Assembly (NCBI RefSeq): GCF_004010195.1
Contig: NC_057752.1
Span: 10,551,830 to 10,599,048 of the forward strand
DNA from: Chiloscyllium plagiosum
Taxonomy: Eukaryota
Direction of reading: 5' to 3'
Length of the DNA stretch: 47,219 nucleotides
In this document: positions 3,585 through 44,661 of the stretch, piece by piece
Layout: the number at the start of each line of letters is the position of its first letter
Numbering within the stretch: the first letter of the stretch is position 1
Notes under the pieces: generated by a model
What the model was told of the DNA's origin: nothing
Databases searched by the model: none
The model's input: the letters and a program-made list of their open reading frames with translations, nothing else
Position numbers and translations under genes: made by a program

Positions 3585-3875
3585 GAAATCATAACTCAAA
3601 TTCGGATTAGGTGAGAGGAGAGCAACTTAAAAAAGACATGAAAGGCAATTTTTTTTATACAAGAGGTTGGGTTCGTGTGTGGAGTGAACTTCCTCAGGAT
3701 GTGGTGGATGTGGGCACAATTACAATGTTTAAAGACATTTGAATGAGTACATGAATAAGAAATATTTGGAGATTTATGGGCCATGAATAGGCAGGTGGGC
3801 TAGTTTATTTTGGGATTATGTTCGGCATGGACTGGTTGGACCAAAGGGTCTGTTTCTGTGTTGTATGACTCTGTG
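3585..3875 (+). mobile_element. CR1 LINE 3' end fragment
   Basis: Typical CR1 tail (ggcaattttttt.tacaagaggttg...ggactggttggaccaaagggtctgtttctgtgttgtatgactct). Confidence 0.75.
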
Positions 3876-18528: not shown

Positions 18529-19589
18529 TATATGCTTCAGCAGGATACCTCTCACTGTACCCAGTATATATACCATGGAGCTGGATGCCTCTCAGTCTAG
18601 CTGGTATATATCTTTGAGCAGAATATCTCTCACTTTCTTTCCGATATCCATAAGTAGGAAATCTATCACTGTACTCAGTGTATATCATTGAGGTAGATAT
18701 CACTTACTGTACCCTGTATATATTCTGGACCATGATATCTTTCACTGCAGCTAATATATGTTCTAATGGAAGATACTTCTCACTGTAACCAGGATATATC
18801 CTGGAGCAGGGTATTGTTGTCTCTACCCAGTATTTATTATGGAGCAGGATATCTCTCACTTAGTGCATATCATTGAGCAGGATATTTCTCACTGTATCCA
18901 ATATAAATCATGGAGCAGGATATTGATCAATAAATGCATTATATATCATGTAGATGGATATCTCTCAATTTTTCCTGTGTATGTCAGTGAGCAAAGTATC
19001 TCTCACAGTACCTCCTAATAAAAGTCCTGAAGCAGGATATTTCTCAGAGTACAGTGTACATTCTTGAGCAGGTTATTTCTCACTATACCCAGTGTATATC
19101 ATTGAGTGTGATATCTCTCACAGTGCCCAGTATATATATCCAGGAATGGGGTGTCTCTCACTGTATCCAGTAAATATCATGGAACAGGCAATGTCTCCCT
19201 GTACCTAGTACTTATCATTGAATAGGATATCTCTCATTCTACATTATATATATTATACCTAATGTCAGGTAATCCTTCACCTGTATGGGCTTGCTATGCT
19301 CTGTTATGGACTACCTTGTCTTGTAATAAGAGAAAGGAAGGGATTGAGTGAGGTGAAAGTAGGTGCCAAGGCTGTTTAAAGTGGTGCAGGTGGTTGAAAA
19401 GTGTTGAGCTATTCTGTGAGAGTGAAGAGGGCGTGCACCATTAATGGTGTGGCAATCTAGTTGGGAAGGAAGGGAGGGAAGGATATGAGAGTGGGTGAGC
19501 GAAGATGTTTCAGGTAACAGTGGAAATAATAGTGCATGGGCCTTGGTGGGAAGTGGATGCAGTAGGTGGCAGAGAGAAGCTGGTAGCAC

Positions 19590-26034: not shown

Positions 26035-26327
26035 CTAAGAACTACGAGCAGGAGTAGGCAATTTAGCTCCTCAAACTTGCTCCGCTATTTGATATGATCA
26101 TGGCTGATCTCATTTTGGCCTCCATTGCACGTTCCTGCCCGCTCTCCATAATGCTTCAACCCAATACCATTCCTGATGAAGGGCTTTTTCTTGAAACATC
26201 GATTCTCCTGCTCCTCGGATGCTGCCTGACCTGCTGTGCTTTTCCAGCACCACACTCTGGACTCTAATCTACAGCATCTGCAGTGCTCACTTTTGTCCAA
26301 TTAAAGATCTTCCTATCTCCTCCTTAA
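26035..26327 (-). mobile_element. 3' end of a long CR1 LINE that resumes at 29144; contains an older PLE terminus at about 26168-26295
   Basis: CR1 tail; the sequence continues in register after the duplicated tcctatctcctccttaa. Confidence 0.8.
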
Positions 26328-26509
26328 CTGAAAATGTGTTGCTGAAAAAGCGCAGCAGGTCAGGCAGTATCCAAGGAGCAGGAGAAGCGACGTTTCGGGC
26401 ATGAGCCCTTCTTCAGGAATGAGGAAAGTGTGCCAAGCAGGCTAAGATAAAAGGTAGGGAGGAGGGACTTGGGGGAGGGGCGTTGGAAATATCAACACTA
26501 TCCATATGA

Positions 26510-26775
26510 CATGCAGCACTCCCTTAGCACTGACCCTAGGACAGCATGACACTCCCACATCACTGACCTTCTCATAATGTGGCACTCCCTCAGCACTGAC
26601 CCTCCGACAGTGTGGCTTTGCCTCACCACTGACTCTCCGACAGTGGGCACTCCCTCTGTGCCAACCCTCCCACAGTATGATACTCCGTCAGCACTGACCC
26701 TCCAACAATGCAGCGTTCCCGAAGCACTGACCCTCTGATAGAACGCTCTGACAGAGTTGCGTTCCCTCAATTATT
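26510..26775. repeat. 33-bp minisatellite (about 8 degenerate units)
   Basis: Unit about ggcactccctcagcactgaccctccgacagtgt; units start at 26581 and 26614. Confidence 0.9.
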
Positions 26776-27274
26776 GTCTCACATCCCTGTACTTATTCTA
26801 GAAACGTTGGAGCAGGAGGTGTCGGTTCAGTTGAGGTGTGTGTGTTTGTAGGGGGCAGAGATCGGATCCTGTCCAGGGATATGCAGAAAATCCACTTCTC
26901 TCCCTTTCTCTCTGATCTGAGTGGAGAGACGATTTGCTCCCTGATCCCGAACGCACGGGAATGCTCGAGCCCCGAGAGAAGATCATTTTAGAAAACCTCT
27001 CTGTGTGTCGACCTGGTGATCTGAGTTGTGTATTACCGAGTGTTAAGTAACTGGGAGAGACGGAGTTTCATAAATGAACATTATTATTTCACGGAGGCTT
27101 GAGTGCAGAGTGGATCACACTTTCATGTGCAAAACTGGTGATTCTGACTGACAGACAGCAAGATTAAGAGACAGAATGAATCCCACTTTCAATATATAAC
27201 TAGACACTAAGTTCCACATTTCCAGAGATTCAAGAATCTGACAGTGAGAGTTGGGGAGAAACTGAGAGGTTCTT

Positions 27275-28120
27275 GGTCACATGCATTACCAGGCACTGGA
27301 TAATGCAGAAGGAATTCAATACTCTCTTACATCCTCGGAGATTGAGACGATGTATCAAACACAGGACGTTTTCACAAACGTCAATCAACAATCATTGAAG
27401 TACTGTCTGAATTACTGTTTATTTTGTATAAAACCGGTCAATCAAGAAGGAAACCACCATCAAACGATATTGAAACAGGCATTTAATTGAACGACATGTA
27501 CCTAGAACTCGACTCCACCTTTATCATTCCCTAAATGACCTGTCTAAGATAATCACAATTCATTTGCATGCAACGTTCTCTACTCTGTAAATGTCATCGT
27601 TCAAGATTGTGAGGGCAATTATTGGCCAGAGTTAAGGCCTGTAACACAGTTGGTCAAATTTATATTTACTCTCAGTAACATAGAAACAGAACAATGTATA
27701 ATTTGAGCATGGATTCTGGCATACTTTTGCCGTTTATTGATGAGAATTGCTGAGAGAAACAACAGACGATTCGAGAAACAATACAAGACTCGTTCCATGG
27801 TTGGTAATTTTATGTGTAGCTTGTAATGACGATGAATCAAGTTTTCTGTCAGATTTCTGCCAGAACAGGCTTAACGTTATCTGAAATAATCCAATGACAA
27901 ATATCAATGAAAGCTGATGGCTAGACCGCAAGTTTCACAGATACTAAAACTTGTATACGGCTCTGGTGTGCCATAAAAGAAGAATACCATTTCGAATGAG
28001 AAAATGTCGAAATAATGGAGTGTCGAAGCAGATTCTGTGTTATATTCGTGGAAAAGTTATCATCAGGGAAACAGCTGCATCTGGGAATTGTCCTGTTTGA
28101 AGATGCATCCTCAGAGCATC
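27275..28120 (+). mobile_element. Ancient hAT (Charlie/Buster, ZBED5-like) transposase relic
   Basis: Across many frameshifts, in order: HYQAL (HRQAL), EFNTLLH..R...TGRFHKR (LLHTEVRWLSRGKVLKR), SLNDL, VRAI, LWCAIKEEY, C-EA-F-V, KQLHLG. Confidence 0.55.
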
Positions 28121-31100
28121 AGCATGGGATCTCTGAGTTCAATGACGTTTCCACAAGGACACTTGTTGCTACTTTCATTCAGAAACAAATACATTCATAT
28201 TATCTTCACTGTCATTTTAGATTCCAGTTCTGTACACCTATCTCACCCAGTCCGGTTAGTGCTTAGACATTGCAGAGACCCTGCACGCCCTCGGACAAGA
28301 CCCAATGCACAAAAGCCGAAAGTACTCCAATACCGTTTTCGCGTTTTGACCATTTTTCCAGCAATTTGTGCAATTGCTGAAACATCCTCCGTCTGCAACT
28401 CACCATCATGTGAAACTTTGGGGCGGTTTCATGTGAGAGAATTGGAATCCTGCACTTAACCCTCCGCTCAGCACACTTTACCATTTGGAAGAAATGCGAA
28501 GTGAACCACTTCCTCCCCCATTGTGCACAATTCTCACTGTCAACCAATTCCCAGATATCATTATTCAACCCTATGTATGTAAGATTGTAATGAATCACTG
28601 TATGGATTAGCTTCCCCCAAACCCCCACCCTCTCAGTATTCAAATGACGTGAAGACAATACTGAGAACCGTGATCAAGTGAAGGATATCCAGTGATATTT
28701 GGATAACTGCTTTATCAGGAGCTGAATGCCTAACGACACTACTTAAACTTATGTATCTCCGGGCAGAACCTGGCTCTGATGCAAAAATGTAATTTGATAA
28801 AAAAAAGTTCCACCAGTTAAATTCCTGCTCCATTGGTTGAGAATCTCACGTATCGTTCAAGCTGGACCAATCCGAGCAAATCTGCGAGTATTTCATTATA
28901 TTTCAGACGTCTGCGTTCAAGATGATGGATGCACATTTTGGGGAGTGGCGATGAGTTCCTCACCATGGAAACCATTGCATCTAGTCTCCCTGTATCAATG
29001 GTTCCTGAAGAAGGGCTCATGCCCGAAACGTCGCTTCTCCTGCTCCTTGGATGCTGCCTGACCTGCTGCACCTTTCCAGCAACACATTTTCAGCTCTGAT
29101 CTCCAGCATCTGCAGCCTTCACTTTCTCCTATCTCCTCCTTAAATTTACTCTATGTCCCAGCATTGACTGCACTCCGGGGGAGTGAATGCCATAGATTCC
29201 CGATCCTTTAACAAAAGTAATTCCTCCTCATCTCTGTTTTAAATCTGCTACCCTTTATCCTAAAACTGTGCCCTCTTGTTCTAGGTAGCTGCAAAAGAGG
29301 AAACATCCTTTCTGTGTCTACTCTGTTAATCCCCTTTAGCATTTTACAGACCACAGTTAGAGTTCCTCTCGTTCTTCTAAACTCCAGAGAGTGTAGACCT
29401 AAACTGCCCAAACTCTCTCTATAAGACAAACCCTTCTCCTCGGGAATCAATGTAGGGAACTATCTCTGAACCGCCTCCAATGCAACTGCATCCCTCCTTA
29501 AGTAGGTGGACCAAAGCTTTATGCAGCATTCCAGGTACGGCTTCACTAATGTCTTATGCAGTTGCAGCAACACTTCCCTACGTGTATACTCAATTCCTTT
29601 AGCAATAAGTGCCAAAATTCCACTTACCTTCTTGCTGGACTTGGAAAGTTAACTCTGCTTTCTCCTCGCAGATGCTGCTGGACCTGCTGAGTTTCTTCAG
29701 TAATTTCTGTTTATGTTGCATCTTCATACTAGTTTTCCACAATTCAAGCTAGAAGATACCCAATTCCTCTGCACTGAAGTTCCTCTCCATTTAGACAATA
29801 AGTTGCCTTTCTATTCCTCTGGCCAAAACGGATAACCTCACACATTAAACTTTATCTGCCACATTTTAGCCCAATCACCTAACCTATCCATATCCATTTG
29901 TAAAGTTCTTATTTCCCACCTATTTTAGTGTCATCTGCAAGTTTGGCTATAGTCTCTTCTATCCCAGCATCCAAGTAATTAATATAGATTGCAATTAGTT
30001 AGGGCCCAAGGACTGAACCCTATGGTACCCCACTAGCCAACCAGAAAGGAGACAGATTTACCCCAACTCTCAGTTTTATGTTGGTTCACTAATCCTCTAT
30101 TCAAGCAAATAAATTACCCATAACCCCATGGTAGCTTTCTGTGCAGCATCTGATGAAATGCCTTCCAGAAGTCCTGATATACAACAACTACAAGGATCCC
30201 CATTACCATTTTTTAAATTCCTTCATCGGATGAGGCTAGGCTAGCATTTATTGTCCATCTCTAATTGCCCAGAGAGCAGTTAAGAGTCAGCCACAATGCT
30301 GTGGGTCTGGAGTCACATATAGACCAGACCAGGTTAGGATGGCAGTTTCCTTCCCTAAAGGACATTAATGGCAGGATTCAAACCTGGGTGCCCAGATCTC
30401 TGGATTAACAGTTCAGCGATAATACCACCAGGATGTTGCCTCCCTGCACATTGCTTATTATATCTTCAAAGAACTCTAGCAAATTAGTCAAACATGATTT
30501 ACCCATCATAAAATCATGCTAACTCTGATGAATTATATTTTGACTTCCCAAATGTCCTGTTATCACTTCCTGAAGAGTGGATTCTAACAATTTGCCAACA
30601 GCAGATGTTAAACTAACTGGTCTATAATCTTCTACTGTCTGTCTCCTTCCCTTTTAGAACAAGGGTGTTATATTACCATTTTTCCAATCCACTGGAACCT
30701 TCCCTACATCCAGAGAATTTTAGAATATTATAACAAGTGGATCCGCTATCTCTGTTGCCACATCCTTTAAGACCCTAGGGTGTAGCCCATCAAGCCCTGG
30801 GGACTTGTCTGCCTTCAATCCCCATACTTTATTCAGTACTTTTTTCCTTGTGATGATAATTGTTCTAAGTTCCTCCCTCTTTATAATCTCTGCATTATTT
30901 GTAACTACTGGGATGGTACTAGTATCCTCTACCACAAACACTGAAATAAAATATTGATTTAGTCACTCTGCCATTTCTGTGTTCTGCAGTATGAACTCCC
31001 CAGTCTCATCCTCCAAGTGGCCAACATTCACCTTAGCTACACTCTTCCTGTTTATATACCTATTGAAGCTTTAGCTATCCATTTTTACATTTTGTGTGAG

Positions 31101-31256: not shown

Positions 31257-31485
31257 TTCAAAGTTATTGAGAAGATTTGTAGCTCGGGTGCTCGTTGTTG
31301 TGGTTCTGTTCGCCGAGCTGGGAATTTGTGTTGCAGACATTTCGTCCTCTGTCTAGGTGACATCCTCAGTGCGTGGGAGCCTCCTGTGAAGCGCTAAGAT
31401 CACAGAAGCGCTTCAGAGGAGGCTCCCAAGCACTGAGGATGTCACCTAGACAGAGGACGAAATGTCTGCAACACAAATTCCCAGC
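31257..31485. mobile_element. Third-family fold-back PLE-type element with 11-bp TSD
   Basis: About 80-bp inverted arms; GCA-CTGAGGA-TGTCACCTAGACAGAGGAC-GAAA-TGTC-TGC hammerhead-like motif on both strands; TSD tagccatggat at 31246-31256 and 31486-31496. Confidence 0.8.
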
Positions 31486-31825
31486 TAGCCATGGATGTTT
31501 TATGCTCCTCCCTTACAATCTTTCTTCTTTTCTGGAATGTATCTTAGTTGGGAGCAATTGAGTATCTCCTTCAACATCTGCCACTGCTCATCAACTGTCC
31601 TAACTTTTAGCCATCCTGCCCAGTCCATTAGGGCCAGATCTGTCTTCATGCCTTTGTAATTATGTTTGGTTAACTCTAGAACATCAGTTTAGATTAGATT
31701 AGGTTCTCTACAGTGTGGAAACAGGTCATTTGAGGAGAAAGTGAGGTCTGCAGATGCTGGAGATCAGAGCTGGAAATGTGTTGCTGGAAAAGCGCAGCAG
31801 GTCAGGCAGCATCCAGGGAACAGGA

Positions 31826-31864
31826 GAATCGACGTTTCGGGCATAAGCCCTTCTTCAGGATTCC
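31826..31864 (-). ncRNA. Minimal type I hammerhead ribozyme motif
   Basis: Minus strand GGAATC-CTGAAGA-A-GGGC-TTAT-GCCC-GAAA-CG-TC-GATTC: stem I, CUGANGA core, stem II, GAAA, palindromic ACGU stem III, GUC cleavage triplet. Confidence 0.75.
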
Positions 31865-31896
31865 TGAAGAAGGGCTTATGCCCGAAACGTCGATTC
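31858..31896 (+). ncRNA. Minimal type I hammerhead ribozyme motif
   Basis: CTGAAGA at 31864-31870, GAAA at 31884-31887, predicted cleavage after C31891; stem I has one T.T mismatch. Confidence 0.7.
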
Positions 31897-33769
31897 TCCT
31901 GTTCCCTGGATGCTGCCTGACCTGCTGCGCTTTTCCAGCAACACATTTCCAAACAGGTCATTTGGCCCAACAAGTCCACACCGACCCTCCAAACAGTAAC
32001 CCACCCAGACCCATTCTTCTACACTTACCCCTGACTAATGTACCTAACACTGTGGGCAATTCAGCATGGCCAATTCACCTGACGTGCACATCTTTGGCTT
32101 GTGGGAGGAAACCAGACCACCCGGAGGAAACCCACACAGACACAGGGAGAATGTGCAAACTCCACACAGACAGTCGCCCAAGGATGGAATTGAACCCGGG
32201 TCCCTGGCACCGTGCGGTAGCAGTGCTAACCACTGAGCCACAGAGCACAGATCAAAGGATAAATGGGGTTAGTATTGGCACTAGTGTGGGACTCCAGTTT
32301 CTCACTGTCCAAATGAAATTGAAATTCTAGCATGCTACGATCACTCTTCCTGAGAGGATCCTTTACTATGAGATCATTTATTAATCCTCCATTATACAAC
32401 ATTAAATCCAGAAGAGCCTGCTCCAGGTTTGTTCCCAGCATATGCTCCAAGAAACAATCTAATGTATTCAATGAATTCTCCTCAAGGCTACCCTTGCCAG
32501 TTTGATTAATCCAGTATATGCATATTAAAATAACCCATGTTTATTGTTGTACCCTTCTTAAAAGCCCCCAGCGTTTCCTGGTTTTTACTGTGCCCCATTA
32601 TGGGACTACTGTTTATTATAGTTCACTCCCACCAGTGACTTATTTGCCTTGTTATTTCTTATTTCTACCCAACGGACTCTATGTCTTCATTTTGAGTGCT
32701 GATATCGTTTTTTACTGCAGCATTGATCTTATCCTTTACTAATAAAACTGCACCACCACCTTTTCCTTCTGCCTATCCTTCTGAAACACTGAATGCCCTT
32801 GAATATTTAATTCCCAAACCTGCTCTTTCTGCAACCATGTCACAATTGTTGCCAGTAAAACACACCCATATATCTCTATTTGTGCTGTAAACACATTCTT
32901 TTTATTTTGAATGCTTCATGCATTCAGATACAAAGCCTTTAAGTTTGTTCTATTAGCAAATTTCCCTATTCTTGTATGATTACTTGATATGATATGACAT
33001 CACACACTGATTGAGGGACAAGTATTGACCAGAACACCAGGGGGAGCTCATGTGCTTGTCCTCTGAATGCTGATAGGGGCTCCTCAGCATCCACCTGAGA
33101 TGGTGTCACATTTTAACATGGGGGCTGGCACACAACTATTTGACAGAGCAGCACTTCCTCAGGACTGCACAAGACTGCCAGCCTGGATTTTTACACTTAA
33201 ATCCTTGTAGTAGGATTTGAACCAACAAACTTCAGATTCAGGTGCAAAAGTGTTGCCAAATAAGTGGTAACAACATAGGTACAGATTAGCTCACTGCTTT
33301 TAGATAGGATGAACAGTAACAGGGACTGGTTATGCTGACCACTCTGATTTGGTGTTGTAATATCCATACAGTTCAATGACCAATTGTGCATTTGATATAA
33401 CCTGCCTGAATTTAGATATTTGTGTGACTTGCACATCGTCTTCAGCTTCTCAATGCTATTGACCAACATTTCCTTATCTTTCAAGTCTTCTTCGTTAATT
33501 CATCTCCCTTTTCTACCCATGAGACATGTCAAGCTGTATTTTAACTGTTGGAGCCCAGCAATACTCGGGCATGTCTGCAGCACTTTTCTCATAGCTTTTG
33601 CATCTGCTTTCCAGTGATTCTGATGAATTACTGACAGCGGATGCGATGACAACACGATAACCACTTTCAGCTCCTGCACCTCAAGGACCCAATTGTGAAT
33701 GTCAGTACAAAGCTTTCGAGACATGTCAAACCAGCCAAACTACTTGACTGATAGGTAGGTGCCAGTTTG

Positions 33770-39790: not shown

Positions 39791-40443
39791 GCAACCGCAA
39801 GAAATGCAAAACTTGCGCTGCAACCGCAAGAAATGCAAAACTTGCGCCCACACCTCCCCCCTTACTTCCTCCACACCCCCCACCAACCCAACCTCCACTC
39901 CCGGCACCTTCCCCTGCAACCGCAAGAAATGCAAAACTTGCGCCCACACATCCCCTCTTACTTCCCTCCAANNNNNNNNNNNNNNNNNNNNNNNNNNNNN
40001 NNNNNNNNNNNNNNNNNNNNNNNNNNNNNNNNNNNNNNNNNNNNNNNNNNNNNNNNNNNNNNNNNNNNNNNNNNNNNNNNNNNNNNNNNNNNNNNNNNNN
40101 NNNNNNNNNNNNNNNNNNNNNNNNNNNNNNNNNATCCCTCGAACTCAGCACCGCCTTCCTAACCTGCAATCTTCTTCCTGACCTCTCCGCCCCCACCCCA
40201 CTCTGGCCTATCACCCTCACCTTGACCTCCCTCCACCTATCACATTTCCAAAGCCCCTCCCCCAAGTCCCTCCTCCCTACCTTTTATCTTAGCCTGCTGG
40301 ACACACTTTCCTCATTCCTGAAGAAGGGCTTATGCCCGAAACGTCGATTCTCCTCTTCCTTGGATGCTGCCTGACCTGCTGCGCTTTTCCAGCAACACAT
40401 TTTCAGCTCTGATCTCCAGCATCTGCAGCCCTCACTTTCTCCT
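39791..40443 (+). mobile_element. 5'-truncated Penelope-like element spanning an assembly gap
   Basis: PGTFPCNRKKCKTCAHTSPLTSLQ (Cys-rich linker before GIY-YIG); 3' part matches the 16.1-16.4 kb copy; hammerhead CTGAAGA at 40318-40324 and GAAA at 40338-40341. Confidence 0.85.
39972..40133. other. Assembly gap (162 N)
   Basis: Run of N. Confidence 1.
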
Positions 40444-41339
40444 TATGTATAGAATAACAGATACTCAAGAGTTAGTTACAGACTGGAGTCTAATGGGGGG
40501 GGGGGGGTTCATGGGTTTATAAGTAGAATAACTCTTAAGGGTGCATTACAAACAGAATAACAAATAAAAAAAGAGATTGAATTTAAACAAGGGGCTCAGG
40601 ATGATTCATAAATTGGATAACTTATACCAAGAATGATATATAACAAGAATGAGTTACAGTCTGAATCTAAATGAGGCTTCAGGGGATTTATATATACAAT
40701 AACATATTCCTGGGACTGAGTTACAGAATGGAATCTAATCAAGGAGTTTGGGTTGTTTAGTAATAGAACCATAGATACTCAAGTGTAAATTACATATTGG
40801 AATCTGATGGAGGGCTGCAAGTGGAATTTACATATACAATTACAGATATCTGAGAGTGAGTTACAGACTGGAATCTAATCAAGAGGTTCAATGAGGTTTA
40901 GATATAGAATAACAGATATTTGGGAGTGAGTCACAGACTGGAGTTTAATCATGGGATTCATCAGTTTACATATTGAATAACATATTCTCAAGAGTGAGTT
41001 ACACACTTGAATGTAATCAATGATTCAGAGTAGTTTATATATAGAGTGACAGATACTTAGGAGTGGGTTGTAGACTGAAATCTAATCAAAGGGTTTCAGG
41101 GGTTTTATACATAGAATAACAGATACCTCAGAGTGAGTTAAATCCTGGAATCTGATCAAGTGATTTGAAGTGTTTTATATATAGAATAACAGATACCTGG
41201 GAGCCACTTACAGACTGGAATCTAATCAAAGGATCCAGGCATGTTTATGTAGAGAATGACACATACACTGGAGTGAGTTACAGATTTGATTCCAATTGAG
41301 GGGTTCCTTGGGGTTTATGCAGAGAATAACAGGTACTGA

Positions 41340-42665
41340 GGGATAGGATCTATTTATATTTAGAAAAGAATGGGCTTATCACTGATAGGCAACATGGTTT
41401 TGTGTGGGGGAGATCATGCCTTACCAACTTAATAGAGTTCTTTGAGGAAGTGACCAAGTCGATAGATGAACGAAGGGCTGTAGATGTCATATACATGGAC
41501 TTTAATAAGATGTTTGATAAGGTTCCCCATGGTAAACTAATAGAGAAAGTGAAGTTACATGGTGTGCAGGGTGTTCTAGCTAGGCGGATAAAGAACTGGT
41601 TGAGCAACAGGAGACAGAGAGTAGTAGTTGAAGGGAGTTTCTCAAAATGGAGAAAGGTGACCAATGGTGTCAGTGCTGGGGCCACTGTTGTTTGTGATAA
41701 ATATAAATGATCTGGAAGAGGGCACTGTTGGTATGATCAGCAAGCTTGCAGATGACACGAAGATTGGTAGAGTAGCCGAAAGCATAAGGGACAGTCTAAG
41801 AATACAGGAGAATGTAGATAGACTGGAGAGTTGGGTGGAAAATTGGCCGATGGAGTTCAATTCAGACAAATGTGAAGTGATGCATTTAGGCAAGTCAAAT
41901 TCTAGAGCGAATTATACAACGAATGGAAGTGCCTTGGGAAAAGTTAATGAGCAGAGAGATCTGGAGTGTGGGTCCATTGTACCCTGAAGGTTGCTGCACA
42001 GGTGGATAGAGTGGTCAAGAAGACATATAGTATGCTTGCCTTCATTGGACGGGGTATTGAGTATCAGAGCTGGCAAGTCATGTTAACACTGTACAAGACA
42101 TTGGTTTGGCTGCATTTAGAATACTGTGTACAGTTCTGGTCGCCACATTACCAAAAGGATGTGGATGCTTTGGAGAGGGTGCAGAGAAGGTTTACAAGGA
42201 TGTTGCCTGGTATGGAAGGTGCTAGCTATGAAGAGAGGTTGAGTAGGTTAGGTTTGTTTTCATTAGAAAAAAGGAGATTGAGGGGGGACCTGATTGAGGT
42301 TTACAAAATCATGAAGGGTATAGACAGGTAGCTAGTGATAAGCTTTTTCCCAGGATGAAGGATTCAATAATGAGAGGTCACGCTTTCAAGGTGAGAGGTG
42401 AAAAATTTAAGGGGGATACACGCGGCAAGTACTTTACACACAGGGTGGTGGGCGTTTGGAACGCGTTGCCAGCAGAGGTGGTAGAGGCAGGCATGGTAGA
42501 TTCATTTAAGATGCGTCTGGACAGATGCATGAGTAGGTGGGGAACAGAGGGATACAGATGCTTAGGAAGTGGGTGACAGGTTTAGACAGTAGATTTGGAT
42601 CGGCTCAGGCTTGGTGGGCCGAAGGGCCAGTTCCTGGGCTGTAAATATTCTTTGTTCTTTGTTCT
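41340..42665 (+). mobile_element. Relatively young 5'-truncated CR1 LINE (RT to 3' end), frameshifted
   Basis: QHGF..GRSCLTNLIEFFEEVT, VDVIYMDFNK.FDKVPHG, SVLGPLLF, LADDTK, HLEYCVQFWSPHY; (ttctttg)n tail. Confidence 0.95.
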
Positions 42666-44661
42666 CTTTATATCCAAGAGTGAGTTACATACTGGATTCT
42701 AATCAAGGGATTCATGGCATTTATATATAGAATAACAGATACCCAGGAGTGAGTTACGGGCTGAATTCTGATCAAGGGTTTCAGGGGAGTTTACATATAG
42801 AATAACGACTTTTCTGGTACAGTGGTAATGTCTCTGCATCTGAACTAGAAGACCCAGGTTCAAGACCTACCTGTTCTCGGGGCATATCATAACATCTCTG
42901 AACAGGTTGATTAAAAATACTTGGGAATAAGTCACAAGCTAGCATCTGTTTGTGGGTTTCAGGGAGATTTATATATTGAATAACAGATACCCAGGAGTGA
43001 GTTACAGACTGGAATCTATTGGAGGGGTTCGGGATGGTTTATATATAGGATGACAGATATCCGGGAGTGAGTTACAGATTGGAATCTAATCAAGGTTTCA
43101 GAGTACTTTATTTGTAGAATAACAAATACTCTGCAGTGAGTTATAGTCTGGAATCTAATCAAGGGATTTCAGAAGGCTTATACACAGAAAAACAGATGCC
43201 CAAGAGTGAACTACAGACTGGAATCTAATCAAAGAGTTTGGGGATTTTATGTAGAGAATAACAGATACTTGGCAGTGAGTTATAGACTGGTATCTAATCG
43301 AGGAGTTCAGGTGCTTTATATATAGAACAGTAGGCACCTCAAAGTAAATTACAGATTGGAATCTGATTGGGGTGTTTGCGGGGCTTCATAAATAGAATAA
43401 CAGATTGCCAGTTGTGTGTTATAGACTGGAATCTAATTAAGGCATTTTACCAGGTATATATATGGAAATACAGATACCTAGGAGCGAGTTGCTGACTAGA
43501 TTCTCATCAAAGGTTCAGAAGTCATTATAACTGGAATAACAGATACCCAAGATTGAGTTGCAGACTGGAATCTAATTGAGAGTTTCAGTGGTGGGTAGTT
43601 TATACAAAATAACAGACTTCAAGAAGTAAGTTACAGACTGGAATGCAATCAAGGGGTTCAGTGTGGTTTATATATAGAATATCAGATACCCAGGAGTGAG
43701 TCATAGACTTGAGTCTAATCAAAGTGTTTGGGTGGTTTATATATTGAATAGCATATGCCCAGGAGTGAGTTATAGACTGGAATCTAATTGAGCGGTACGG
43801 GTGTTTTATATATATAGAGTAACAGGTATCCAGAAATGAGTTACAGACTGAAATCTCATCAAGGGGCTCAGGGTGGTTAATAAATAGAATAACACATACC
43901 CGGGAGTGAGTTACAGACTTGACTCTAACTGAGGGGTTTGGGTGGTTTATATATAGAATAATAGATTTCAGGGAGTGGGTTACAGACTGGAATCTAATCG
44001 AGGGATTCAGGAGGTTTATATATAGAATAACAAGCACCTGGGAATGAATTACAGATAGGCATCGAATAAGGAGGTTTATGTGATTTATGAATTGAATAAC
44101 TGATATGGAGAGTGAATTACGGACTGGAATCTAATTGAGGGGTTGGAGTGGTTTGTATGTAGAATAACAGACGCCTGGTAGTGAGTGGCAGGTTGAAATC
44201 CAATCGAGGGGTTCAGGTGATTTATATATATTGTAACAGATACATGGACGTGAGTTACAGGCTAAAATCCAATCAAGGGGTTAGTGGGCCTTTACACATA
44301 AAATAACAGACACTCAGGAGTGAGTTACGGACTGGAATCTAATTGAGGGGTTCATGGGTTTTATATGGAGAATAGCAGATGTGTGGAAGCGAGTCAGAGG
44401 CTGGTATACAATCAAGGGGTTTCACAAGGTTTATATAGAGAATATCAGATACTTCATAGTGAGTGTCAAGCTGGAATCTAATCGAGGGGTTTGGGGTGTT
44501 TTCTATTTAGAATAGCAGCTTCCTGAGAGTAAGTTACAGATTGGAATCTAATCGAGGGGTTCAGGGTGGTTTGTATATAGAATAACAGAATACCGGGAGT
44601 GAGTTACAGACTGGAATCTAATTGAGGTGTTCATGGTGGTTTATATATGGACTAATAGACA

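Follow-up and report, generated by a model that had tools for sequence, protein, structure and literature searches.

Host DNA between inverted Penelope-like arms in a LINE of Chiloscyllium plagiosum

The window analysed here, a stretch of 47,219 nucleotides from Chiloscyllium plagiosum contig NC_057752.1, contains a CR1-type LINE interrupted by an insertion in which two arms of a Penelope-like element (PLE), placed head to head inside one target-site duplication (TSD), enclose 2.5 kb of non-PLE DNA related to the flank of a receptor gene cluster. The locus is likely a repeat-guided duplication of a known kind, as in Alu-bounded duplicative transposition, and not a new composite transposon. Our preferred reading, to which we give a probability of about 0.45, has two steps, in which an ordinary fold-back insertion was later broken and then repaired off a PLE stub at the donor; whichever route was followed, it is very probable that such a resident stub fixed the right edge of the cargo. 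A preliminary description of the locus had seen in it a fold-back PLE that took up foreign DNA in one event; its observation is partly confirmed, in that arms, cargo and TSD do form one locus with related arms, and its interpretation is partly supported.

Anatomy of the insertion

The split LINE was recovered by tblastn as minus-strand RT fragments between 29202 and 30536, and its flanks, once joined through a single copy of the 17-mer, give alignments that cross the junction in 15 further LINE copies, the best at 70.9% over 385 nt. The two flanking 17-mers are 100% identical (17/17), and the first 4 nt of the 17-mer overlap the PLE end, which leaves a TSD of 13-17 bp. Just inside it are two PLE termini in inverted orientation, as first described, with 26328-26419 and 29002-29093 forming a 92-nt pair that is 96% complementary. 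The 37-nt tail is present on one arm and absent from the other, and the left arm has a 5' extension of 71 nt beyond both the right arm and the stub at the donor cluster. The PLE arm that lies outside the TSD is a separate insertion in the same LINE; this third, older arm and the orphan half of an older TSD (Table 1) were both overlooked in the first reading.

Table 1. Features of the insertion and its surroundings, in window coordinates
Feature	Position	Strand	Basis
Older PLE arm from a separate insertion into this LINE, beyond the TSD, 81-85% against the two young arms	26168..26293	+	
Left TSD copy, 13-17 bp, within the CR1-type LINE	26311..26327	+	17-mer identity; joined empty site against 15 LINE copies
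Left PLE arm of 163 nt, ending without a tail at family position 92, candidate minimal hammerhead core with gC	26328..26490	-	
Start of the cargo, a truncated terminus of the 33-bp minisatellite of the donor	26491..26745	+	
Cargo, non-coding DNA from downstream of a cluster of 7TM-receptor genes (on C49 and unplaced contigs)	26746..28984	+	
Orphan left half of an older TSD, from the resident stub's insertion at the donor cluster	28985..29001	+	
Right PLE arm, 129 nt, candidate hammerhead core with gC, 37-nt tail	29002..29130	+	Same position as the resident stub of L002
Right TSD copy	29127..29143	+	17-mer identity
CR1-type LINE, decayed C-terminal part of RT, host of the insertion	29144..30536	-	tblastn; joined-flank alignment

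A canonical EN+ PLE unit, as far as the text available from two sources describes it (PMC8557442, PMC11167929), comprises an inverted 5'-truncated copy and a tail of 30-40 bp. The window insertion resembles such a unit in its TSD, its inverted partner in head-to-head arrangement, its hammerhead-bearing end and its tail at one end only (arms of 92 vs 129), and departs from it in having 2.5 kb of non-PLE DNA at its centre. The claim of an intact hammerhead holds for the core letters, which are present in both arms and match the description of a minimal hammerhead ribozyme with its terminal repeat and palindromic stem III, but not for folding, since the folding of the monomers does not exceed that of shuffles (z -0.14 to 0.31). 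By our own reading the gC variant carried by both arms would disrupt one stem of the hammerhead as we pair it. An Rfam search gave no hammerhead match and returned only sub-threshold matches to miRNA and RRE families.

The cargo runs in the orientation opposite to the receptor genes, and its joint with the left arm is blunt, with zero microhomology. It opens in the minisatellite noted earlier, present as 6.7 copies at 26516-26735, which at the donor and its paralogs reaches a length of at least about 3 kb. The segment that follows had been called CpG-containing and unique; the first term is apt, with an observed/expected ratio of 0.48-0.69 in 26501-29000 vs mostly 0.05-0.4 elsewhere in the window, but the second is not, as the segment has 51 matches, mostly in the C49 cluster. 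Nor did a supposed very old hAT relic withstand scrutiny, there being 0 hAT family matches in 27 ORFs of the window and 30 of the paralogs, and tblastn with the ORFs of 8 hAT loci reached only chance level (best E 0.013, for a frame running opposite to the hAT ORF, vs 0.11 for the control with reversed sequence). The event moved non-coding DNA only, with no sign of function. A single-cell poly(A) run from unspecified tissue, of which about 2 in 100 reads were sampled, a basis too small for inference, had zero depth over 26783-28924.

Donor lineage and the resident stub

The nearest donor, contig C101060, differs from the cargo at 9 of 885 nt (99% over 26491-27375), continues as minisatellite and has no left arm, and it groups with the window in the tree with support of 99/98; the branch of this donor lineage is about 3%. 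The paralog L002, which with L003 is 90-91% identical to the cargo, aligns to 26491-29129 at 90% with the arm included and has a PLE stub at the identical cargo-arm junction, inside its own duplicated 11-17-mer. PLE-free paralogs have one copy of this older target sequence, L003 retains a remnant of the tail, and L002 has both halves of the duplication, of which the window keeps one orphan half. Because the 90% paralog already holds the stub at the same junction within its own TSD, and because the window keeps the orphan half, we consider the stub to have set the cargo edge. In the window the copied DNA stops precisely where the canonical tail ends, and nothing of the downstream flank of the donor came with it. 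That the right arm and the stub of L002 begin at one 5' position was not taken as evidence on its own, since 23 of 63 arms start at -1 to 3.

The stub is seen in the 90% paralog; that of the true donor is missing from the assembly, in which the right half of this donor is not contiguous. That half is plausibly C89640, which begins 22 nt beyond the TSD of the stub and is 97% identical to the L003 flank (tree placement unresolved). A contig of organism C reaches 22 nt into the right arm, which falls below the 31-letter rule for bridging and is a hint only.

In the preliminary description the arms would act like a composite transposon that moved host DNA, and the centre would be unrelated DNA taken up with no earlier PLE at the donor. 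The single TSD, the related arms and a donor without a left arm agree with that account, but a paralog whose stub lies at the same cargo-arm junction inside a TSD of its own contradicts the uptake of arbitrary foreign DNA, and the whole unit has no second copy in the genome: the left junction has 1 genome match and the right junction 2, the window and the stub of L002. The insertion is thus single-copy, which argues against a composite transposon, and the account as a whole is very improbable.

Routes to the present locus

The gC variant is uncommon: exact 29-mers with gC number 17 genome-wide, 2 of them in the window, vs 8765 with gA, and the background of gC among other copies is 0.17%. For the 8 other gC copies with a readable fold-back partner, the partner has gA in every case (8/8, read by eye). 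The variant was rejected as a subfamily marker, the 15 other gC copies looking like independent single-arm mutations, and T at position 75, which L002 has in common with the left arm, was likewise dismissed as a sign of lineage, being present in 5/31 copies. The window arms differ at 4/92 positions (4.3%) and lie 1.2% and 3.1% from the subfamily majority, where the median is 2.5% in a sample (n=31) enriched for gC loci; five other pairs of the same broad subfamily, assigned by eye, show 2.8-7.8%. Judged by these letters, the window arms look like sister copies of normal age. The right arm has 5 departures from the majority in 129 nt, with private letters at family positions 69, 71, 115 and 117, and the left arm lacks those at 69 and 71. 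The cargo differs by 5 letters and 1 gap in 2203 nt from contigs of sample S2, so that the arms are more diverged than the cargo when compared with C101060 (4/92 vs 9/885, Fisher p 0.027) or with S2 (Fisher p 0.0004); the Fisher p becomes 0.093 once a single CpG site is dropped. On this comparison the cargo appears younger than the arms.

Because the arms share the rare gC and differ at 4/92, as expected at normal age, while the cargo is younger, we favor insertion and later repair as separate steps. In the first, one gC-bearing RNA would have produced an ordinary fold-back insertion with both arms and the 13-17-bp TSD, and the tail on one arm only, together with a TSD of this length, is as in ordinary insertions in our sample and supports such a beginning. 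Palindromes are fragile. In the second step, the inverted repeat may later have broken at its centre, and the right-hand broken end would have paired with the homologous stub beside the 7TM-receptor gene, whereupon repair synthesis would have run through the 5' edge of the stub, the old TSD half and the 2.5-kb flank into the minisatellite, after which the newly made DNA would have been blunt-joined to the left arm. A homologous repeat does lie at the donor-acceptor junction, as stub and orphan TSD half, both seen in the 90% paralog, and no more than 129 nt of homology, a short stretch, is on offer for pairing. It is established that dispersed repeats can recombine ectopically while a break is being repaired (PMC7407515). 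The repair of a broken hairpin had been one option of the preliminary description, and it comes close to the reading favored here, except that the DNA taken up was not arbitrary, the paralog stub having set its edge.

The main rival, which we regard as possible though on the unlikely side, is a PLE 5' transduction in one step. A read-through RNA antisense to the receptor gene would have covered the flank and, beyond it, the resident stub. PLE protein acting in trans would have primed internally at the tail site of that stub and copied it together with the 2.5 kb upstream, and the left arm would have come from the other DNA end, primed on a second PLE RNA at its tail-less site; gC would then have come to be shared by a short conversion or a template switch between the arms. 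The copy does stop exactly at the canonical tail end without the donor's downstream flank, the divergence of the right arm is compatible with a resident copy, and a pair with 0/90 mismatches, the youngest sampled, attests to young PLE activity. One source reports that reverse transcription by an anole PLE begins internally, at two sites, with extension of both strands in vitro (PMC11167929), and another describes pLTR-framed host DNA with TSDs in Adineta vaga (PMC3846280); as PLE-driven capture at integration is thus published, the prior of this rival is raised. It needs, however, an extra event to place gC on the left arm against the 0.17% background, the left arm includes 71 nt for which the resident stub has no counterpart and does not share the letters of the right arm at 69 and 71, the youngest sampled pairs belong to a subfamily other than that of the window arms, and the promoter and transcript for the read-through RNA remain hypothetical. 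Since the 5/129 departures of the right arm would equally fit an old resident stub, it is only the shared gC and the age of the left arm that separate break repair in two steps from transduction in one.

A single event with a homology-guided template switch, in which both arms derive from one gC RNA and the right-hand cDNA jumps to donor RNA or DNA at the stub, is improbable. With no need for a second event, it would account for the one TSD, for the orphan half of the older TSD and for arms that have gC and their subfamily in common, but derivation of both arms from one RNA fits poorly because the arms are more diverged than the cargo, with 4/92 differences accumulated while the cargo gained <=1% (Poisson p 0.015, besides the Fisher values above).

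We see a slim chance that the assembly has mis-joined an ordinary fold-back on C43 and one donor haplotype through the PLE arms. Sample S2 shows about one dose of the cargo (depth 18.8-20.9 vs 19.6 and 22.3 for diverged paralog contigs), all its contigs carry a non-window letter at 27931, 28760 and 28942, and none spans the locus; in 4 runs PLE copies swamp the junction signal, with >130,000 repeat contigs per DNA run, and neither an empty site nor a cargo-free fold-back was seen in them. The assembly is gappy at PLE bodies. Against this, the left junction offers no homology for joining, the insert has zero Ns, and private letters of the right arm no more than 44 nt apart chain the cargo to the LINE. 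The break of the donor contig falls within the part that is shared, which is what two collapsed copies would predict, and one dose in S2 also fits polymorphic cargo, S2 contigs dropping rare variants.

Related systems and a survey of PLE pairs

The closest published parallel is the PLE-mediated mobilization of host DNA in the rotifer Adineta vaga (Arkhipova, Yushenova, Rodriguez 2013, PMC3846280). Insofar as the available text allows comparison, the two are alike in having unrelated host DNA between pLTR ends, one TSD, a kb-scale cargo and a multigene-family source located elsewhere, and non-coding cargo is reported there too. The window differs in being from a vertebrate-type genome, in that its donor lineage is identified and a pre-existing stub with its own TSD fixes the edge, in that its arms are apparently older than the cargo, in that no gene was moved, and in being known here without an allelic empty site. 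Ectopic recombination repair involving Alu or LINE copies (PMC7407515) is like the window locus in that a repeat supplies homology at one junction, the second joint is blunt and non-homologous and the source lies far away, whereas in the window the repeat is a 129-nt PLE stub in a fold-back and the intermediate allele is inferred. SVA 5' transduction and L1 twin priming, from the accessible part of PMC3287187, are similar in that an upstream flank is carried and two opposed pieces lie in one TSD, and dissimilar in that the window has no poly(A), involves a different enzyme with the internal RT start of PLEs, and has an RNA intermediate that is hypothetical. A literature search, with most subscription papers and supplements outside its scope, returned nothing describing such PLE capture in sharks or other vertebrates.

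As a case of host DNA within a PLE insertion the locus is resolved unusually well, with donor lineage, pre-existing stub and fossil TSD half all readable. It suggests that the combination of PLE arms, a TSD and a foreign centre can arise by a route other than capture at integration, a point that matters for the reading of published cases of PLE transduction. The repair reading predicts three alleles, namely the empty site, a plain fold-back and a fold-back with cargo, and so makes a PLE route to host DNA testable.

We surveyed 647 kb from four places of the genome, not a random sample, in which 96 PLE arm matches were found. Other TSD-flanked PLE pairs with a non-PLE centre numbered 0 of 14 (upper 95% bound 19%), one of the 14 centres being about half N and another, of 254 nt, being a high-copy repeat read as the start of a PLE ORF. 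A candidate pair 2.4 kb apart on C1 was rejected, having no shared TSD and an N-filled centre. The count of stubs extrapolates roughly to several hundred thousand genome-wide. It is conceivable, though doubtful, that PLE stubs serve as portable duplication handles, with fold-backs as fragile acceptors and stubs as landing pads or internal RT starts, and that by this means chromosomes routinely receive copies of kb-scale segments of gene clusters from one another. If so, they would be an unrecognized engine of segmental duplication in cartilaginous fishes, and an orphan TSD half combined with arm-versus-cargo age would be a genome-wide signature telling DNA-repair from RNA routes. Arm ends in the survey (n=63) fall mainly at two places, 30 at family positions 83-98 and 28 at 124-129. 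A longer PLE copy on C20, whose frameshifted 424-aa frame has no Pfam match, shows by eye candidate RT and GIY-YIG endonuclease motifs, including two cysteines between GIY and YIG.

Insertion anatomy and host LINE

Positions of the target-site duplication (TSD) and of the head-to-head Penelope-like element (PLE) arms
Feature	Position	Strand	Remark
Left TSD copy, 17-mer	26311-26327		exact match to 29127-29143
Left PLE arm	26328-26490	minus	
Right PLE arm	29002-29130		
Right TSD copy, 17-mer	29127-29143		exact match to 26311-26327

The preliminary description placed a 17-mer TSD around inverted PLE arms within a CR1 LINE, and this is confirmed by the exact 17-mers, by the inverted match of the arms (92 nt, 96%) and by the flanks, which are a decayed CR1-type LINE with RT fragments between 29202 and 30536. 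With the flanks joined through one 17-mer, and an older PLE arm at 26168-26293 taken out of the query first, 15 other LINE copies aligned continuously across the joined site, at up to 70.9% identity. That older arm, 81-85% identical to the young arms, lies in the same LINE 17 nt to the left of the TSD, and it and the young insertion are two independent PLE insertions within about 150 nt.

Both arms were also said to carry a variant unlike that in other copies, and indeed the genome holds just 17 instances of the gC form of a 29-mer, including the two at this locus, compared with 8765 of the common gA form. Because gC is this rare, and because the partner is gA in 8/8 of the other gC copies with a readable fold-back partner, the two arms are related beyond chance.

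Cargo and the resident stub

The minisatellite and raised CpG reported for the non-PLE cargo between the arms (26491-29001) are both real, while a hAT relic finds no support and the label "unique" fails, since 26740-29001 has at least 51 matches in the genome (40 of 93 candidates scored), mostly in C49:6.8-9.2 Mb and unplaced contigs. Past the right end of the cargo the paralogs reach a 7TM gene of the rhodopsin family, encoded on the other strand (each half matches Pfam 7tm_1 at E about 4e-7, just under the cut-off) and presumably GPR139-like, and three of three translated receptor copies are frameshifted. The C49 region and unplaced contigs (L002-L020) hold dozens of single-exon-like 7TM receptor copies with a common 2-kb flank, and the 33-bp minisatellite lies near 5 of the 19 copies examined.

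The closest source among the scored matches is C101060:1-884, with 9 differences in 885 nt and no PLE left arm: its minisatellite goes on past the equivalent of 26491, it has a 17-bp deletion in common with the window, and the two group in the tree with support of 99/98. The contig end falls inside the part common with the window; the right half of the true donor is non-contiguous in the assembly, with C89640 as a candidate. Elsewhere on C101060 (21005-21734) is an array of 84-bp period, which we take to resemble a C2H2 zinc-finger gene.

Paralog L002 (C49:7.475 Mb) matches 26491-29129 at 90%, right arm included. The PLE stub of L002, some 0.5 kb beyond the receptor stop codon, is bordered by its own duplicated 11-17-mer, of which PLE-free paralogs have a single copy. 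In the window the left half of this older TSD is present at 28985-29001 and the right half is absent. The junction between cargo and right arm is found in the genome only in the window and L002, and the left junction only at this locus; taken with the older TSD half, these patterns point to a resident stub, seen in L002, as what fixed where the cargo ends on the right. The private left junction indicates that arms and cargo have not moved again as a unit. In another paralog a deletion of ~370 nt (L003:3521-3540) took most of the stub together with flanking sequence upstream of it, and a short piece of the tail survives. L002 also carries a 39-bp insertion (3689-3724), a 36-nt inverted copy of adjoining sequence, which is a small fold-back templated insertion.

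Routes to the present structure

We infer a two-step origin in all its steps, at a probability of about 0.45. An ordinary gC-bearing fold-back would have inserted and later broken, its right end would have been repaired off the homologous donor stub with 2.5 kb copied, and the copied DNA would have been blunt-joined to the left arm, where the joint has no microhomology. This reading is favored because both arms would come from one gC fold-back, so that gC needs no coincidence. The other reading that remains, somewhat less probable, is a one-step 5' transduction, in which the resident stub itself, copied from a read-through RNA with an internal RT start, would form the right arm, and the left arm would derive from a second RNA; the divergence of the right arm fits a resident stub equally well, but gC must then have crossed over to the left arm, which has 71 nt absent from the stub.

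That one RNA gave rise to both arms in a single event is improbable because the arms differ more from each other (4/92 nt) than the cargo does from C101060 or from six contigs of the sequenced sample S2 (5 letters and 1 gap across 2203 nt), with Fisher p = 0.027 and 0.0004, respectively, and 0.093 with the one CpG site dropped. The arms are 1.2% and 3.1% from the subfamily majority, against a median of 2.5% for 31 copies in a gC-enriched sample, and their distance from each other resembles that of further pairs within this broad subfamily (2.8-7.8%). The earlier reading, that a fold-back PLE took up foreign DNA, stands for the anatomy, which is real, and is reinterpreted in mechanism, a resident stub having set the edge. 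An assembly mis-join is just as improbable, given that the left junction shows no homology, the insert contains no Ns, and gaps between private letters in the right arm never exceed 44 nt. Counting against our two-step reading, S2 has about one dose of the sequence, at a depth of 18.8-20.9 where paralog contigs have 19.6 and 22.3. At three sites the letters of the window are absent from S2, and no piece crosses the locus, the joint tables being swamped by repeats. These results would fit a cargo that is polymorphic, a donor that is missing, or such a mis-join.

Comparison with other PLE insertions

A 647-kb survey (the window and stretches of C43, C5, C20 and C1) gave 96 PLE arm matches, and a TSD was present in 15 of 59 head-to-head pairs tested, typically of 13-17 bp with one arm tailed and one tail-less, so the ends of this insertion are ordinary for the genome. 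Centers of the 14 other TSD-flanked pairs are at most 32 nt in 11 and PLE body or high-copy repeat in three, one about half N; none in these 647 kb is foreign (upper bound 19%). Visual inspection picks out RT and GIY-YIG motifs in a longer copy, for which Pfam gives no match.

PMC8557442 and PMC4209133 already describe the PLE tail, inverted partner and minimal hammerhead, and PMC11167929 reports RT starts at two internal sites for an anole PLE, with both strands extended. Our locus resembles cases from Adineta vaga, where host DNA, at times non-coding, lies between pLTRs within a TSD (PMC3846280; summarized in PMC6431247). SVA 5' transductions (PMC3287187) and ectopic repair between repeats (PMC7407515) are documented as well. 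Neither shark nor transduction nor capture comes up in the main text of a 2026 retrozyme preprint, and the main texts of the literature searched yielded no vertebrate account of stub-guided PLE capture.

Elsewhere in the window, a very young PLE fold-back of another subfamily lies at 31733-31951 (0 mismatches in 90 nt, 14-bp TSD), and a near-perfect inverted repeat outside the PLE arm family at 31316-31486 (80-nt arms at 98%, 11-nt spacer). Long 38-bp and 70-bp tandem arrays occupy 18539-19236, 40646-41340 and 42954-44659, and immediately upstream of the arm at 40244-40443 is a PLE fragment that contains an N gap. On C5 (L099:6476-8154; 40.116-40.118 Mb), six mirror-symmetric PLE arm matches suggest a 1.7-kb inverted duplication centered between two fold-back insertions.
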